Source: Escherichia coli
Lineage (GTDB): Bacteria; Pseudomonadota; Gammaproteobacteria; Enterobacterales; Enterobacteriaceae
Strand: one strand, 5' to 3'
Length of the DNA stretch: 64,000 bases
NCBI RefSeq assembly: GCF_030384885.1
Contig: NZ_CP128613.1
Shown: positions 16,334 through 59,908 of the stretch, piece by piece
Position numbering within the stretch: position 1 is the stretch's first letter
Layout: each line of letters opens with the position of its first letter
The notes under the pieces: model-generated
What the model saw: the letters and a program-made list of their open reading frames with translations, nothing else
Told to the model about the DNA's origin: nothing
Database searches by the model: none
Made by a program: the position numbers and the translations under genes

Positions 16334-16517
<184 letters not shown>

Positions 16518-53722: not shown

Positions 53723-54649
53723 ATGAATTATTCTTTAAAGCAATTAAAGGTTTTCGTCACAGTAGCGCAGGAGAAAAGTTTTAGTCGTGCAGGAGAGCGT
53801 ATCGGCCTGAGCCAGTCGGCAGTGAGTCACAGTGTGAAGGAGCTGGAAAATCATACTGGTGTTCGCCTGCTGGACAGAACCACGCGTGAAGTGGTGCTTA
53901 CAGATGCAGGGCAGCAGTTGGCTTTGCGTCTTGAGCGACTGCTGGATGAACTTAACAGCACGTTGCGCGATACCGGGCGTATGGGGCAACAACTGAGCGG
54001 AAAAGTTCGGGTCGCTGCCAGCCAGACCATTTCCGCGCATCTTATTCCGCAATGCATTGCTGAAAGCCATCGCCGCTATCCAGATATTCAGTTTGTCCTG
54101 CACGATCGTCCGCAGCAGTGGGTGATGGAAAGTATTCGCCAGGGAGATGTCGATTTTGGCATCGTCATCGATCCAGGCCCAGTGGGCGATCTGCAATGTG
54201 AAGCGATTCTTTCCGAGCCTTTCTTTCTGCTTTGCCATCGCGATAGCGCTTTGGCCGTGGAAGATTATGTACCCTGGCAAGCATTACAGGGAGCGAAATT
54301 GGTGTTGCAGGATTACGCGTCAGGCAGCCGACCGCTGATTGACGCAGCGCTGGCGCGCAATGGTATTCAGGCGAATATTGTGCAGGAGATTGGTCATCCG
54401 GCGACGCTGTTCCCGATGGTAGCCGCAGGCATCGGCATCAGTATTCTTCCCGCACTGGCGCTACCATTGCCTGAAGGTAGCCCGCTGGTGGTAAAGCGCA
54501 TTACGCCGGTGGTTGAACGCCAGTTGATGCTGGTGCGCAGGAAGAACCGTTCACTTTCCACCGCCGCTGAAGCGTTATGGGACGTAGTACGAGACCAGGG
54601 CAATGCGCTAATGGCTGGGCGGGAAGGGGATCCGTTGTATCAGATATAG
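53723..54649 (+). CDS. yfeR: LysR-family transcriptional regulator YfeR
   Basis: 308-aa ORF; N-terminal LysR HTH ([24 protein letters not shown]). Confidence 0.85.
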
Positions 54650-54687
54650 AGTGAATTCATACTGCCGGGAGCTCCGGCAGTAATCAA

Positions 54688-55452
54688 TCAAAAATTAAAT
54701 TTGATGGAGTAGATTATCGCATCCTGGTAAAAATCTTCGCCCAGTTTGTCATCCGCATAACGATACTGAATCCCTGTGGTGATGTGTGAAGTTGCATTCC
54801 ACCAAAGTGCGACGGCACCATTCAGACCTTCTTTGCCGCCATTACCTGCCGCGTAGGTGGCATCACGATCAAACTCGTACTCGTTCCAGTTGGTGAGGGT
54901 GAATTTCTCACTGCCCAGCATAAAGCTGTAACCTGCAACCCAACCGGCGACATAACCGTTATCGCCGGTATAATAGGTTTGGTCTGTATAGCGTTTTGCA
55001 AAGAACGGTTTGAACCACCAACCGCTGCCGGTGAAATTGTAGCCGATCCCGTAAAGGAACATATCGTCATGGAAATTCACACGATTCGCAGAACCGTAGG
55101 TGCCATACGCATGCAAGTAGAGATTAAATCCGGTGTCACCCAGGTAAATACGGTTGGTATTTTTAAATGTATAACGCTGCTCGCTACCCTGTTTATCATG
55201 ACGATCATTATAAAAGTTTTCCCAGTCGAAGAACCCGTACATTTCTCCCCAACTAAAGTTAGCGCCGCCTTCCAGTTCCAGATATCCAAAATCATCTTTG
55301 TGTGATTTGGTCGACGATTTCTCAGTGGTTCTGCTAGTCCAGTCAAGATAATGAATACCTATATCAGCAAAACCGCCTTTAAATTCTGCATGGGATACTG
55401 CTGGTATCGCCAATACAGAAGAGAGTGTCAGAGTAAAAAGATGTTTTTTCAT
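54688..55452 (-). CDS. yfeN: Outer-membrane beta-barrel protein YfeN (Tsx-like)
   Basis: 254-aa ORF with signal peptide and C-terminal ...KFNF; adjacent to xapAB. Confidence 0.8.
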   Translation of the reverse strand: MKKHLFTLTLSSVLAIPAVSHAEFKGGFADIGIHYLDWTSRTTEKSSTKSHKDDFGYLELEGGANFSWGEMYGFFDWENFYNDRHDKQGSEQRYTFKNTNRIYLGDTGFNLYLHAYGTYGSANRVNFHDDMFLYGIGYNFTGSGWWFKPFFAKRYTDQTYYTGDNGYVAGWVAGYSFMLGSEKFTLTNWNEYEFDRDATYAAGNGGKEGLNGAVALWWNATSHITTGIQYRYADDKLGEDFYQDAIIYSIKFNF

Positions 55453-55700
55453 AGCATAATTCCCTATGCCGATCGTTATTAGTTGATTGCTTAATAAAAA
55501 GGTTGATTAAAAGCGGCATATTGTTAATGCAAGGGAAAGGAGAGTACCAATACAGTTTTTTCAGCCTATTAATAGTGAAAAAATATAAATATATCGATAT
55601 CGAATAACTATCGGATACATGAAAAAAGTGTATTGGTATGAGGTAGGGCAATCTCGTTATAAAAAGGCGTTAGATTCCACCCTACAAAAAAAGGATATAT
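55453..55700. promoter_or_regulatory. Divergent yfeN / xapA control region (XapR-dependent xapA promoter expected)
   Basis: 248-bp AT-rich intergenic region; individual sites not resolved. Confidence 0.3.
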
Positions 55701-56534
55701 ATGTATCAGGCTCAGTTTTCTCATAACCCACTGTATTGCGTAGATATTATCAAGACTTATAAACCTGATTTCACGCCACGAGTGGCCTTTATTTTAGGTT
55801 CCGGGCTGGGCGCGCTGGCCGATCAGATTGAGAACGCGGTCGCAATTTCCTACGAAAAGCTGCCTGGGTTCCCGGTAAGTACCGTACACGGTCATGCGGG
55901 TGAGCTGGTGCTGGGTTATCTCCAGGGGGTGCCAGTGGCGTGCATGAAAGGTCGCGGACATTTCTACGAAGGTCGTGGGATGACCATCATGACGGATGCA
56001 ATCCGTACCTTTAAGTTGCTGGGCTGCGAGTTGCTGTTCTGCACCAATGCGGCTGGCTCACTGCGTCCTGAAGTGGGGGCCGGCAGTCTGGTCGCATTGA
56101 AAGATCACATCAACACCATGCCGGGAACGCCGATGGTGGGTCTTAATGATGAACGTTTTGGTGAGCGCTTCTTCTCGCTGGCGAATGCCTACGATGCGGA
56201 ATACCGCGCACTGTTACAAAAAGTGGCGAAAGAAGAGGGGTTCCCTCTGACGGAGGGCGTGTTCGTCTCGTATCCGGGGCCGAATTTCGAGACTGCGGCG
56301 GAAATTCGCATGATGCAAATTATTGGTGGGGATGTTGTTGGTATGTCTGTGGTGCCTGAGGTTATTTCAGCTCGCCATTGCGAACTTAAAGTCGTTGCGG
56401 TCTCTGCGATTACCAACATGGCGGAAGGTCTGAGTGACGTGAAGCTTTCTCATGCCCAAACGCTGGCAGCAGCGGAACTCTCAAAGCAAAACTTTATTAA
56501 TCTTATTTGCGGCTTTCTGCGCAAAATTGCCTGA
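55701..56534 (+). CDS. xapA: Xanthosine phosphorylase (purine nucleoside phosphorylase II)
   Basis: 277-aa ORF; PNP family. Confidence 0.9.
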   Translation: MYQAQFSHNPLYCVDIIKTYKPDFTPRVAFILGSGLGALADQIENAVAISYEKLPGFPVSTVHGHAGELVLGYLQGVPVACMKGRGHFYEGRGMTIMTDAIRTFKLLGCELLFCTNAAGSLRPEVGAGSLVALKDHINTMPGTPMVGLNDERFGERFFSLANAYDAEYRALLQKVAKEEGFPLTEGVFVSYPGPNFETAAEIRMMQIIGGDVVGMSVVPEVISARHCELKVVAVSAITNMAEGLSDVKLSHAQTLAAAELSKQNFINLICGFLRKIA

Positions 56535-56594
56535 GTAAAACAACAATAAACGGCCTCACTGAGTGAGGCCATATGATGCGACAAGGAAACGATT

Positions 56595-57851
56595 ATGAGC
56601 ATCGCTTTGCGCTTAAAGGTAATGTCTTTTTTGCAATATTTTATCTGGGGGAGCTGGCTGGTTACCCTCGGTTCTTACATGATTAATACCCTTCATTTCA
56701 CCGGCGCTAATGTTGGCATGGTTTACAGTTCCAAAGGGATCGCCGCGATTATTATGCCTGGTATAATGGGGATCATCGCAGACAAATGGCTGCGTGCAGA
56801 ACGTGCATACATGCTGTGTCACCTGGTGTGTGCAGGCGTACTTTTTTATGCGGCATCCGTAACTGATCCGGATATGATGTTTTGGGTGATGTTAGTCAAT
56901 GCGATGGCGTTTATGCCGACTATTGCGTTATCGAACAGCGTCTCTTATTCCTGTCTTGCCCAGGCAGGGCTTGACCCGGTGACCGCTTTCCCGCCCATTC
57001 GCGTTTTTGGTACGGTGGGGTTCATTGTCGCCATGTGGGCAGTAAGCCTGCTGCATCTGGAATTGAGTAGTCTGCAACTGTATATCGCGTCCGGTGCGTC
57101 ATTGCTGCTGTCGGCTTATGCGCTGACTTTGCCGAAGATTCCGGTTGCGGAGAAAAAAGCGACTACATCGCTTGCCAGCAAGCTGGGTCTGGATGCCTTC
57201 GTGCTGTTTAAAAATCCACGCATGGCTATCTTTTTCCTCTTCGCCATGATGCTGGGTGCGGTGCTGCAAATTACCAACGTTTTTGGCAACCCGTTCCTGC
57301 ATGATTTCGCCCGTAATCCTGAGTTTGCTGATAGCTTCGTGGTGAAATATCCGTCCATTTTACTGTCAGTTTCACAGATGGCTGAAGTCGGTTTCATTCT
57401 GACGATACCGTTCTTTTTGAAGCGTTTCGGTATTAAAACCGTCATGCTGATGAGTATGGTGGCGTGGACGCTGCGCTTTGGCTTCTTTGCCTATGGCGAT
57501 CCATCACCAACCGGGTTTATTTTGCTGTTGCTGTCGATGATTGTTTACGGTTGTGCATTCGATTTCTTCAATATTTCTGGTTCGGTCTTTGTCGAACAGG
57601 AAGTTGATTCCAGCATTCGTGCCAGCGCCCAGGGCCTTTTTATGACGATGGTAAATGGCGTCGGCGCATGGGTTGGCTCGATTCTGAGCGGTATGGCAGT
57701 GGATTACTTCTCGGTGGATGGCGTAAAAGATTGGCATACCATTTGGCTGATGTTTGCAGGGTATGCTCTTTTCCTCGCAGTGATATTTTTCTTTGGGTTT
57801 AAATATAACCATGACCCTGAAAAGATAACGCATCGTTCAGTTACACATTAA
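56595..57851 (+). CDS. xapB: Xanthosine/nucleoside:H+ symporter (MFS)
   Basis: 418-aa polytopic ORF; NHS-family sequence. Confidence 0.9.
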   Translation: MSIALRLKVMSFLQYFIWGSWLVTLGSYMINTLHFTGANVGMVYSSKGIAAIIMPGIMGIIADKWLRAERAYMLCHLVCAGVLFYAASVTDPDMMFWVMLVNAMAFMPTIALSNSVSYSCLAQAGLDPVTAFPPIRVFGTVGFIVAMWAVSLLHLELSSLQLYIASGASLLLSAYALTLPKIPVAEKKATTSLASKLGLDAFVLFKNPRMAIFFLFAMMLGAVLQITNVFGNPFLHDFARNPEFADSFVVKYPSILLSVSQMAEVGFILTIPFFLKRFGIKTVMLMSMVAWTLRFGFFAYGDPSPTGFILLLLSMIVYGCAFDFFNISGSVFVEQEVDSSIRASAQGLFMTMVNGVGAWVGSILSGMAVDYFSVDGVKDWHTIWLMFAGYALFLAVIFFFGFKYNHDPEKITHRSVTH

Positions 57852-57903
57852 AAGGATTCGCAGCTCTGTTCCTTGGGGCTGCTTTTATGATAAAGGTTAA
57901 TTA

Positions 57904-58062
57904 GTGAAAGATATTTTATTTTCTTCTGGCGTTGGTTTTGGCATTGGTGCTTTGTTTACAATCGTGCGATTACCTATTCCTGTTCCAAATGTATTGCCGG
58001 GTATATTATCCATCGTGTTTATGTATGTCGGATATCTGGTGGTGAAATACTTTATGCCATGA
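57904..58062 (+). CDS. Candidate small two-helix membrane protein (XapX-like, 52 aa)
   Basis: GTG-initiated ORF VKDILFSSGVGFGIGALFTIVRLPIPVPNVLPGILSIVFMYVGYLVVKYFMP with two hydrophobic segments, between xapB and xapR. Confidence 0.45.
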   Translation: MKDILFSSGVGFGIGALFTIVRLPIPVPNVLPGILSIVFMYVGYLVVKYFMP

Positions 58063-58102
58063 TAATTTAATACGATGTATTTTTTATATGGAGCACTTAA
58101 TT

Positions 58103-58987
58103 ATGGAACGCGTATATAGAACAGATCTTAAGTTGCTCCGTTATTTTCTTGCCGTAGCGGAAGAGTTGCATTTTGGTCGCGCAGCAGCGCGTTTAAATAT
58201 GTCTCAGCCTCCGCTCAGTATTCATATTAAAGAGCTGGAAAATCAACTCGGCACGCAGCTTTTTATTCGCCATTCGCGCAGCGTCGTACTGACACACGCG
58301 GGCAAAATCTTGATGGAAGAATCGCGTCGATTGCTGGTGAATGCAAATAATATATTGGCTCGGGTTGAACAAATAGGTCGGGGAGAAGCAGGGCGGATTG
58401 AACTCGGGGTTGTGGGAACGGCAATGTGGGGACGGATGCGCCCGGTTATGCGGCGATTCCTTAGAGAAAATCCTAACGTTGAAGTTCTGTTTCGCGAAAA
58501 GATGCCCGCGATGCAAATGGCCTTGCTGGAACGCCGCGAACTTGATGCCGGGATCTGGCGAATGGCGACAGAACCACCGACTGGTTTTACCAGCTTACGG
58601 TTGCATGAATCGGCGTTTCTGGTGGCGATGCCTGAAGAGCATCATCTCTCATCATTTTCCACCGTCCCGCTGGAAGCGCTACGTGACGAGTATTTCGTTA
58701 CAATGCCGCCCGTGTACACTGACTGGGATTTTTTGCAGCGAGTTTGCCAGCAGGTGGGATTTTCACCGGTTGTTATTCGCGAAGTTAATGAACCGCAAAC
58801 GGTACTCGCCATGGTCAGTATGGGTATTGGTATCACATTGATAGCGGACAGCTACGCGCAGATGAACTGGCCCGGTGTCATATTCCGTCCGCTCAAAGAA
58901 CGCATCCCGGCAGACTTATATATTGTTTATGAAACGCAGCAGGTGACGCCCGCGCTGGTTAAACTGCTGGCGGCGTTGGCGCAGTAG
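58103..58987 (+). CDS. xapR: LysR-family activator of xapAB
   Basis: Start placed at MERVYRTDLKLLRYF (ATG 58103); LysR HTH; synteny. Confidence 0.85.
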   Translation: MERVYRTDLKLLRYFLAVAEELHFGRAAARLNMSQPPLSIHIKELENQLGTQLFIRHSRSVVLTHAGKILMEESRRLLVNANNILARVEQIGRGEAGRIELGVVGTAMWGRMRPVMRRFLRENPNVEVLFREKMPAMQMALLERRELDAGIWRMATEPPTGFTSLRLHESAFLVAMPEEHHLSSFSTVPLEALRDEYFVTMPPVYTDWDFLQRVCQQVGFSPVVIREVNEPQTVLAMVSMGIGITLIADSYAQMNWPGVIFRPLKERIPADLYIVYETQQVTPALVKLLAALAQ

Positions 58988-59056
58988 ATGAGAGGCACGG
59001 GAACTGCCGGACATAGTTGGTCTGATAAGCGAAGCGCATCAGGCAATTTCGCAAAT

Positions 59057-59113
59057 TGCAGATAGCAAAAAAGCGCCTTTAGGGCGCTTTTTTACATTGG
59101 TGGGTCGTGCAGG
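59057..59113 (-). repeat. 57-bp direct-repeat copy: terminator hairpin plus the 3'-terminal 16 nt of tRNA-Lys (partner copy at 59213-59269)
   Basis: Identical 57-mer gcagatagcaaaaaagcgcctttagggcgcttttttacattggtgggtcgtgcagga at both positions. Confidence 0.85.
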
Positions 59114-59253
59114 ATGACTCGCTTCGCTCGCCCTTCGGGCCGTCGCCGCGAGCGGCTCCGTTGTTTCGCTGCGCTCAACTCGAACCTGCTGCAGGTTCGA
59201 ATCTTTGAGTATCGCAGATAGCAAAAAAGCGCCTTTAGGGCGCTTTTTTACAT

Positions 59254-59329
59254 TGGTGGGTCGTGCAGGATTCGAACCTGCGACCAATTGATTAAAAGTC
59301 AACTGCTCTACCAACTGAGCTAACGACCC
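59254..59329 (-). tRNA. lysV: tRNA-Lys (anticodon UUU)
   Basis: Reverse complement matches GGGTCGTTAGCTCAGTTGGTAGAGCAGTTGACTTTTAATCAATTGGTCGCAGGTTCGAATCCTGCACGACCCACCA. Confidence 0.95.
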
Positions 59330-59333
59330 GAAG

Positions 59334-59409
59334 TGGTGGGTGATGACGGGATCGAACCGCCGACCCCCTCCTTGTAAGGGAGGTGCTCTCCCAGCTGAGC
59401 TAATCACCC
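59334..59409 (-). tRNA. valY: tRNA-Val (anticodon UAC)
   Basis: Reverse complement matches GGGTGATTAGCTCAGCTGGGAGAGCACCTCCCTTACAAGGAGGGGGTCGGCGGTTCGATCCCGTCATCACCCACCA; gene name by position. Confidence 0.95.
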
Positions 59410-59455: not shown

Positions 59456-59531
59456 TGGTGGGTGATGACGGGATCGAACCGCCGACCCCCTCCTTGTAAG
59501 GGAGGTGCTCTCCCAGCTGAGCTAATCACCC
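59456..59531 (-). tRNA. valX: tRNA-Val (anticodon UAC)
   Basis: Identical 76-nt tRNA-Val sequence; gene name by position. Confidence 0.95.
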
Positions 59532-59574: not shown

Positions 59575-59650
59575 TGGTGGGTGATGACGGGATCGAACCG
59601 CCGACCCCCTCCTTGTAAGGGAGGTGCTCTCCCAGCTGAGCTAATCACCC
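59575..59650 (-). tRNA. valU: tRNA-Val (anticodon UAC)
   Basis: Identical 76-nt tRNA-Val sequence; gene name by position. Confidence 0.95.
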
Positions 59651-59908
59651 CCGCTGTGTGGAGTCGCATTATAGGGAGAGTTCAAAATGAGTCAACGCAT
59701 TTTCTAAAGAAATTGTTCGTTCGTCGTAAATTTAAGCAAGATGATCGCAAAACAGACCGTGTTGCGCAATTTCTCAACGAAAACAATAATGCATCATGTA
59801 GCAACCCGAACTACATTGAGGAATCAGGCGGGAGTGATAGAATATCGCCCACTCAATTTTTCCAGGATTTGCCGGTTGTCGGCATCTTTCTAAACGTAAG
59901 GCCATTTC

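Follow-up and report, generated by a model that had tools for sequence, protein, structure and literature searches.

In Escherichia coli the 3' end of the tRNA gene lysV occurs a second time a short distance behind the gene, and the question raised by this locus is whether the duplication is the scar of an integrated phage or island, the remains of a duplicated tRNA gene, or part of an element in its own right. A preliminary description of the DNA analysed here, a stretch of 64,000 nucleotides (the window), saw no element between the two copies and took them for a relic. The interval is in fact occupied, and the duplicated tRNA-Lys ends are, very probably, the two edges of a single 156-bp RtT unit behind lysV. 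The RtT unit at this locus is already known and is annotated in public E. coli genomes; our literature search turned up no work on how RtT evolved or on the lysV copy.

lysV closes the valU-valX-valY-lysV operon, in which valU, valX and valY are three tRNA-Val(UAC) genes according to ARAGORN and the gene order is the same as in the MG1655 valU operon. The operon is convergent with xapR, which ends at 58987, and a REP sequence adjoins the locus at 59005-59045. The transcript that could reach RtT presumably starts at a promoter-like site in front of valU. The features of the locus, in the direction of operon transcription, are the following:

59668-59695, minus strand: promoter-like site upstream of valU (TTGACT, 16-nt spacer, TATAAT; 11/12 matches, from a consensus scan only)
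59575-59650, minus strand: valU (ARAGORN)
59456-59531, minus strand: valX (ARAGORN)
59334-59409, minus strand: valY (ARAGORN)
59254-59329, minus strand: lysV, tRNA-Lys(UUU) (ARAGORN; Rfam tRNA model, 79.2 bits)
59211-59271, minus strand: proximal repeat copy, made up of the last 18 nt of lysV (59254-59271) and a 43-nt trailer (59211-59253)
59223-59249, minus strand: trailer hairpin 1, A6-GCGCC-CTAAA-GGCGC-U6, an inverted repeat between lysV and the RtT body
59098-59223, minus strand: RtT element (Rfam RF00391; PGAP annotation in RefSeq E. coli)
59180-59203, minus strand: T-arm palindrome, consisting of GATTCGAACCTGC (antisense T-arm, 59203-59191), A and GCAGGTTCGA (sense, 59189-59180)
59116-59179, minus strand: conserved core of 64 nt with three hairpins, at the T-loop position between TTCGA and AT
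59145-59156, minus strand: core hairpin P2, GCCGC/GCGGC
59130-59140, minus strand: core hairpin P3, GCCC-GAA-GGGC
59121-59127, minus strand: core hairpin P4, GCGAAGC
59098-59115, minus strand: tRNA-Lys 3' fragment from T-loop A59 to CCA, the 3' end of the RtT element
59055-59115, minus strand: distal repeat copy, made up of the tRNA-Lys 3' fragment and a second trailer, with hairpin 2 at 59067-59093

The preliminary description reported a 57-mer repeated at 59057-59113 and 59213-59269, holding a terminator hairpin and the last 16 nt of tRNA-Lys. The repeat and its composition are confirmed, but its start was placed one base early, and the tRNA part is 18 nt long with CCA. The exact direct repeat is 58 nt (59058-59115 and 59214-59271), the bases just outside it differ (T at 59057, C at 59213), and a repeat search of the window that allowed one mismatch extends it to 61 nt (59055-59115 and 59211-59271). 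On the minus strand, each copy begins with the 18-nt 3' end of tRNA-Lys(UUU), ATCCTGCACGACCCACCA, in which CCA is included (59098-59115 and 59254-59271), and continues with the 43-nt trailer. The 18-mer and a 39-nt stretch of the trailer each occur exactly twice in the window, and two or more matches to either were obtained in 0 of 100 shuffled sequences, which excludes chance as the source of the repeat. The trailer hairpin A6-GCGCC-CTAAA-GGCGC-T6 is present in both copies, at 59067-59093 and 59223-59249. The segment around hairpin 1 (59205-59258) folds with a predicted energy of -19.1 kcal/mol (z = -4.8), and the fold looks like a bidirectional intrinsic terminator. A consensus terminator scan did not report the trailer hairpins, which were therefore checked by folding; we attribute the miss to pairing of the A-run with the T-run, which leaves no free T tail.

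Such a repeat invites comparison with an attL/attR pair, the trace of a phage or island that entered lysV by site-specific recombination around the T-loop and was afterwards lost or decayed. It starts within the T-loop and runs through the tRNA 3' end, 18 nt of which are duplicated, and the T-loop position is, as Williams is said to have described in 2002, a common crossover point for integrases. However, the repeat also includes the trailer and continues 43 nt past the tRNA end, into the terminator-like hairpin.

Along the minus strand, lysV is followed by the 43-nt trailer with its hairpin, a 97-nt RtT body, 18 nt of tRNA-Lys and the 43-nt trailer again, the body being composed of the antisense/sense T-arm palindrome and the 64-nt three-hairpin core. 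The interval that was thought to hold no element is this body, and a full-length match to Rfam RF00391 (RtT RNA) extends over 59098-59223 on the minus strand, from model position 1 to 130 of 130. The match scores 51.6 bits against a gathering score of 45, with E = 1e-9 in a local search and 4e-7 in a search of the whole window, and a PGAP feature, ‘RtT sRNA’, is found at the homologous place in RefSeq E. coli genomes. The element begins 31 nt past the CCA end of lysV on the same strand, in the tRNA operon, and its 3' end copies the end of the upstream tRNA, 59098-59115 being identical to 59254-59271.

Similarity to the tRNA is not confined to the 3' end, as GCAGGTTCGA at 59189-59180 is the sense 5' half of the tRNA-Lys T-arm. 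The palindrome arms (59180-59189 and 59191-59200) are tRNA-Lys T-arm sequence and its inverse; they form an 11-bp hairpin in the minimum-free-energy fold, which aligns with the corresponding hairpin of other RtT types. The T-arm-like ggttcgaatc that had been noticed between the copies is indeed there, on the plus strand at 59194-59203, and belongs to the antisense arm of this palindrome. A pseudo-tRNA, for which a search of the interval had been proposed, was rejected: ARAGORN finds only the four intact genes, and 59098-59253 contains no cloverleaf and no match to the Rfam tRNA model at E values up to 1.

Two further features of the interval were considered and set aside. An arginine-rich ORF of 28 aa (59092-59178, minus strand) has RPEGR in common with the ‘protamine-like’ tpr ORF of tyrT; RPEGR is encoded by core sequence CCCGAAGGGCG, and the ORF was treated as a by-product of the RNA core. 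A hammerhead-like reading of GGAUGAGAAC was dropped, the sequence having neither the CUGAUGA core nor a match to an Rfam ribozyme.

A duplicated tRNA end is what RtT units look like elsewhere in the genome. In MG1655, four RtT units, among them the annotated rttR, score 133-137 bits and lie behind tyrT and tyrV; further units are found after all six Lys tRNA genes (the five of the lysT operon and lysV) and after proK (101 bits), and units with the common core lie after argV, argZ and argQ, all three below the Rfam cut-off. K-12 thus has at least 14 RtT units, all those found being in five tRNA operons, and the tail of each is the 3' end of its own tRNA. A core-pattern scan of one genome per bacterial species returned at least 120 loci. 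In nearly every unit with an adjacent tRNA on the same strand, the 18 nt past the core are the 3' end of that upstream tRNA; most departures from this are changes of one base, frequently in the distal members of arrays. The tRNAs involved are Lys UUU, Tyr GUA, Arg ACG, Arg CCG, Pro CGG/UGG/GGG, Gln CUG/UUG, Asp GUC and Ser GGA, and species-specific tRNA variants are also copied into the tails (loci L052, L057, L112, L113 and L121). This family-wide pattern indicates that a duplicated tRNA 3' end is the normal appearance and the signature of an RtT unit. In the terminal Lys variant the trailer hairpin is also part of the unit. The same 58-61 nt are thus found twice at lysV because the RtT tail copies the tRNA end and the terminal variant copies the trailer as well.

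The association of RtT with this operon extends well beyond E. coli. Val-Val-Val-Lys followed by RtT is found in Citrobacter, Pseudocitrobacter, Leclercia, Enterobacter, Klebsiella, Brenneria, Acerihabitans and Photorhabdus, and Rosenbergiella has a shorter Val-Lys version. Two units lie behind the Val-Val-Val-Lys operon in E. cloacae and three in Klebsiella sp., and Pantoea has three behind a Lys-tRNA cluster. The occurrence of Val-Val-Val-Lys with one to three RtT units across these genera suggests that the unit is old at the lysV locus. The interval is no featureless relic, RtT (RF00391) being a structured element conserved behind lysV in many genera of Enterobacterales and present behind other tRNAs as well.

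Within E. coli, the number of head-to-tail units at lysV is variable. A36 has no unit, the window and MG1655 have one and SW071618 has two, and these alleles differ in steps of exactly 156 bp. A query running from valY through lysV and the trailer to nucleotide 60 of RtT, applied with a threshold of at least 80% coverage, places one or more RtT units after valY-lysV in 2307 of 5426 complete E. coli genomes, the unit being absent from 57%; in the sampled matches with less than 80% coverage, similarity stops at the repeat boundary. The DNA beyond the distal copy also varies, xapR-xapB-xapA-yfeN being found in some E. coli and a FlxA-like gene in others, and in genomes where another flank replaces xapR, similarity to the window begins at about 59052, just outside the distal copy. 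All four combinations of flank and unit were seen: xapR with the unit (the window), xapR without it (A36), the FlxA-like gene with it (E6) and the FlxA-like gene without it (O157:H7). The presence of RtT is independent of the neighbouring flank.

Given its duplicated edges, the 156-bp unit is a short tandem repeat, and the alleles behave as such. The series of alleles is probably due to unequal crossing-over or replication slippage between the 58-61-nt edges, which would add or remove whole units; for the empty E. coli alleles the simplest reading is loss of a unit by deletion between these edges. The terminal modules of lysQ and lysV in K-12, about 1.7 Mb apart, are identical at 267 of 268 nt, which suggests concerted evolution by gene conversion.

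These comparisons decide against the attL/attR reading, which we consider very improbable and have rejected. The variable flank past the distal copy is a point in its favour. Against it, only 97 nt separate the copies, and these are the conserved RNA element; no integrase, cargo or remnant of either was found between or next to the repeats, where the ORFs between the copies are all short and overlap the RNA element, and the neighbouring gene is xapR or the FlxA-like gene. In the 64-kb window, the tRNA-Lys 3' end and the trailer each have these two copies and no more. Searches for an attP-like copy gave no true phage match, and the plasmid-collection matches listed are Mb-sized or other non-mobilizable records that look chromosomal. 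Alleles with and without the unit do not differ by an integrated element, as occupied and empty sites would, but by whole 156-bp RtT units, irrespective of flank, and the same architecture is found inside tRNA operons, between genes.

The two identical hairpins with A and T runs between convergent transcription units raise another possibility, namely that the doubled bidirectional terminator between xapR and the valU operon is what matters, and that the RtT body is a passenger. We regard this as quite unlikely, given that most E. coli genomes have a single hairpin at this place, that the unit is also present at lysQ, where the downstream gene nadA is co-directional, and that internal RtT units are without the hairpin.

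How the RtT unit relates to the tRNA is indicated by its internal organisation. From GCAGGTTCGA on, the lysV unit corresponds to the last third of tRNA-Lys, interrupted by the core between T-loop TTCGA and AT. The alignment shows that RtT units in general amount to such a 3' third of a tRNA, its T-loop divided by a conserved structured insert. In Photorhabdus caribbeanensis, 176-bp units lie behind a Val-Val-Val-Lys-Lys operon, each a complete tRNA-Lys gene whose T-loop is interrupted at this point by a 65-nt core; RtT matches these units at 89-90 bits, and their 5' part is matched by the tRNA model. The split form could be ancestral, or could be the product of crossing-over between lysV and RtT at their common 10 nt. 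Part of the earlier suggestion of tRNA duplication and decay therefore stands: the unit holds T-arm and acceptor 3' sequence of tRNA-Lys, and the homologous Photorhabdus units are complete tRNA-Lys genes with a T-loop insert. The interval is, however, a conserved structured module. A conserved tRNA-derived duplication with no inserted element, which the preliminary description had named as the outcome that would count against an integration relic, is essentially what the comparison found.

The position of the core also suggests a more mobile history. In this view, which we think unlikely, the 64-nt core would be, or once have been, a small structured element able to move, with the site between TTCGA and AT as its target, and would have passed from one tRNA family to others; the lysV unit would have arisen when the core entered a duplicated 3' portion of tRNA-Lys. 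Units derived from at least eight tRNA species have the core at one and the same point of the T-loop, and in Photorhabdus the core splits complete tRNA-Lys genes. In addition, a core with the same hairpins and a GGATG/CATCC closing helix is at the centre of dispersed repeats of about 280 bp with inverted ends, of which there are 18 copies in one MAG and similar ones in Rhodanobacteraceae and Photorhabdus cinerea. Taken to its full extent, RtT would be more than an operon spacer, namely a small structured module that splits tRNA-derived T-loops at TTCGA|AT and has colonised at least eight tRNA families in Gammaproteobacteria and apparently in a Candidatus Auribacterota genome, a proposal to which we give little credence. 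It is similarly unlikely, in our estimation, that the module fits its closing helices to the host tRNA and is also found, tail-less, at the centre of MITE-like dispersed repeats. If true, the lysV unit would be a presence/absence-polymorphic insertion of a tRNA-targeting element. Several observations stand against such mobility. No transposase or other mobility function is associated with the core, and part of the similarity is imposed by the search pattern. The linker GGATGAGAAC is common to the Tyr, Pro, Lys and Gln types, which suggests that whole units were inherited and then converted to match the local tRNA, and not that the core alone inserted repeatedly; the Photorhabdus chimeras could come from crossing-over between lysV and RtT at the common GCAGGTTCGA.

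The tandem RtT unit remains the preferred reading. A published analysis describes a covariation-supported structure for RtT (bioRxiv 10.1101/2020.02.04.933952). Our alignment comprised 71 RtT units, the lysV copy of the window and 70 others. RNAalifold on the MAFFT alignment recovered the invariant P3 alone, the variable-length P2 and P4 being misaligned, and the pairing of P4 was tested directly, end to end, against shuffles. P4 pairs end to end with a loop of up to 5 nt in 45 of 53 distinct variants, compared to 9% of shuffles, using 19 different stem strands and mostly GNA triloops. P2 has compensatory variants in orthologous lysV units (GCCGC/GCGGC, GTCGT/ACGAC, GCCAC/GTGGC and GCCGT/ACGGC). 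As judged from the aligned units, both P4 and P2 covary. The conserved core hairpins (P2, GCCC-GNA-GGGC and the GNA-capped P4) are all present in the lysV unit.

The outer helix is eroded at lysV. Of 15 Tyr-type units, 14 have a 5' segment complementary to their own tail, and none has one complementary to the tail of another type; the Arg(ACG) type is similar to the Tyr type in this respect. The best complement of the lysV copy to its own tail is 6/9, compared to 9/9 in tyrT units, and the Rfam alignment of this copy flags non-standard pairs. A 5-bp T-stem pairing, GCAGG/CCTGC, could replace the outer helix in the lysV copy, although the predicted pairing competes with the palindrome. Folded alone, the lysV element is moderately better than shuffles (z = -2.4). 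The lysV copy is thus a weak member of the RtT family, with an eroded outer helix and a T-arm hairpin extended into the 11-bp palindrome, and it scores 51.6 bits, compared to 133-137 for the tyrT copies.

At the RNA level, tyrT RtT RNA is released from the operon transcript and has been proposed to modulate the response to amino-acid starvation, according to the accounts of Bosl and Kersten (1991) given in later work (PMC3318445, PMC4986893, PMC7542023, 10.1101/2024.07.17.603846). rttR is one of the tyrT repeat units (PMC3318445), Northern blots detect RtT RNAs adjoining tRNA genes in Actinobacillus (PMC4986893), and differences in RtT between strains have been noted in Erwinia. Transcription of the lysV unit would require polymerase to read through the first hairpin, and, by analogy with tyrT RtT RNA, its tRNA-like CCA end would be trimmed by tRNA 3'-processing enzymes. 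The lysV copy may yield little or no RNA and may be dispensable, given its low score, its eroded outer helix, the terminator-like hairpin upstream and its absence from 57% of genomes.

The same four observations are those expected if the lysV copy is a neutral relic, that is a decaying RtT/tRNA-Lys remnant without RNA function, kept by gene conversion with the lysQ module and freely lost by recombination between its edges. The near-identity of the K-12 lysQ and lysV modules fits this as well, and we consider neutrality a serious possibility, though not the one we would favour. Against it, the long Lys-type unit with its trailer hairpin is retained behind lysV in several genera, and the core hairpins change compensatorily between genera, which indicates constraint on the structure.

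For genome annotation, a duplicated tRNA 3' end beside a tRNA gene is not always an integration scar, as RtT gives the same signature, and such repeats should be screened with Rfam RF00391 before an island remnant is called. The locus is otherwise ordinary, being a known element, annotated in RefSeq and one of at least 14 units in K-12. Its polymorphism of 0, 1 and 2 copies provides natural isogenic-like material for questions on RtT function, on how tails track their tRNAs and on tRNA copy number.

Among known systems, the RtT units of tyrT and tyrV are closest in plan. Like the lysV unit, they lie directly behind a tRNA gene on the same strand, have the same core hairpins, end in the last 18-19 nt of their own tRNA including CCA, are arranged head to tail in variable number and match the covariance model over its full length above the cut-off. 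The lysV unit has a tRNA-Lys tail and is 156 bp long, whereas the tyrT/tyrV units have a tRNA-Tyr tail and are 178 bp long; one unit is found at lysV, and the tyr operon has three after tyrV and one between tyrT and tyrV. Unlike the tyrT/tyrV units, the lysV unit includes the terminator-like trailer hairpin, has its RtT body behind that terminator, and combines an eroded outer helix with a T-arm hairpin lengthened to a near-perfect palindrome. The RtT unit at the end of the lysT operon, behind lysQ in K-12 (L002 1654-1850), resembles the lysV unit in trailer hairpin, palindrome and core, the 267 of 268 identical nt running from the tRNA start through the second trailer. It differs in lying in the cpoB-nadA interval and in its second trailer, which ends some bases earlier (gctat compared to gctatctgcgat at lysV).

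The attL/attR sites of phages and islands at tRNA genes have in common with lysV a direct repeat from the T-loop through the tRNA 3' end; at lysV, in contrast, there is no element, integrase or attP, the repeat takes in 43 nt of trailer and copies are gained or lost in 156-bp steps. A possible functional analogy is 3'ETS-leuZ, which, as Lalaouna et al. reportedly found in 2015, is released from the trailer of the glyW-cysT-leuZ tRNA operon and acts as a sponge for small RNAs; RtT might likewise be an RNA carved from a tRNA operon transcript by the tRNA processing machinery, and we know of no comparable sponge role for RtT. Finally, RtT shares with REP/BIME, ERIC and Box C sequences the character of short, GC-rich, hairpin-forming elements of variable copy number in transcribed intergenic regions; unlike these, it is not scattered over the E. 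coli genome but accompanies tRNA genes, from which its 3' end derives.

In E. coli K-12 MG1655, the lysQ and lysV modules, each made up of the tRNA gene, its hairpin-bearing trailer, the RtT element (Rfam RF00391) and a second trailer, share 267 of 268 nt (1578-1845 of extracted locus L002 against 1754-2021 of L003). This near-identity, across a distance of about 1.7 Mb and between unrelated outer flanks, suggests gene conversion between the two modules. The lysT operon of E. coli MS 145-7 (L005) contains six tRNA genes, compared with seven in MG1655 (L002), and two neighbouring Lys genes lie 33 nt apart with the RtT unit absent between them; tRNA gene number thus covaries with RtT units.

Units of related form were found behind tRNA genes in other loci and genomes:

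L025 9046-9668, L026 1-600 and L027 5400-7900: tandem arrays downstream of Lys tRNA genes, Photorhabdus caribbeanensis
L129 1667-1694, 1925-2052 and 2340-2450: short units resembling RtT, whose tail is from tRNA-Arg(ACG), MG1655 serV-argVYZQ
L033, L041, L056 and L083: further short units of this tRNA-Arg(ACG)-tailed type
L117 5614-5831 and L118 145-179: core-pattern matches behind tRNA-Pro(UGG), Candidatus Auribacterota MAG

The Photorhabdus caribbeanensis arrays behind Lys tRNA genes run to no fewer than 6 and 12 units, respectively, with a period of 174-176 bp. Each unit of L025 and L026 is an entire tRNA-Lys gene whose T-loop is interrupted, between TTCGA and AT, by a 65-nt RtT core, and the 5' part of these split genes is still called by ARAGORN and the Rfam tRNA model. 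The short units downstream of Arg tRNA genes score 29-31 bits or give no match, below the RF00391 gathering score of 45, so the model under-detects the Arg subtype. The Candidatus Auribacterota matches, an occurrence beyond Proteobacteria, have as their tail the 3' end of the upstream tRNA-Pro(UGG), in which CCA is not encoded; neither locus gave an RF00391 match at the gathering score.

An RtT-like three-hairpin core, with a GGATG/CATCC closing helix and without a tRNA tail, also forms the centre of dispersed repeats, each about 280 bp long and bounded by inverted ends (such as GGGCACCTCGAAAAACC ... GGTTTTTCGAGGTGCCC). These were located in the MAG 'Proteobacteria bacterium SZAS LIN-96' (L006-L023; 18 copies among the matches listed), in L064, L065, L067 and L108, and in Photorhabdus cinerea (L046). 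Their right half resembles the Xanthomonas sRNA sX9 at 33.6 bits, under the cut-off of 44.

The window itself holds the following further features:

16386-16467, + strand: Rfam naRNA4 (CssrE) match, 70.1 bits
59005-59045: REP-type palindromic element (ggtctgataagcgaagcgcatcaggca), with the stop codon of xapR on one side and the distal trailer hairpin on the other
59092-59178, - strand: 28-aa Arg-rich ORF (MSAAKQRSRSRRRPEGRAKRVILHDPPM)
62349-62421 and 62464-62536, + strand: two tRNA genes, probably the tRNA-Ala(GGC) pair that adjoins the valU-valX-valY-lysV-type operon in other genera

In some E. coli, a FlxA-like gene adjoining yfeR takes the place of the xapR-xapB-xapA-yfeN block beside lysV. 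When O157:H7 (L127 3083-3620) and strain E6 (L128 2586-3280) were compared with window positions 54000-59052, similarity to the window began at about 59052, just outside the distal trailer copy, which makes the lysV terminator the boundary of a variable segment. The same comparison showed neither an integrase nor a tRNA-derived repeat flanking this segment.

The 28-aa ORF parallels the annotated 'protamine-like' tpr ORF within the tyrT RtT (…RRQRPEGRSAQR). Both encode RPEGR, and since the coding sequence for this motif is the conserved RtT core CCCGAAGGGCG, the window ORF and tpr may alike be by-products of the RNA element.
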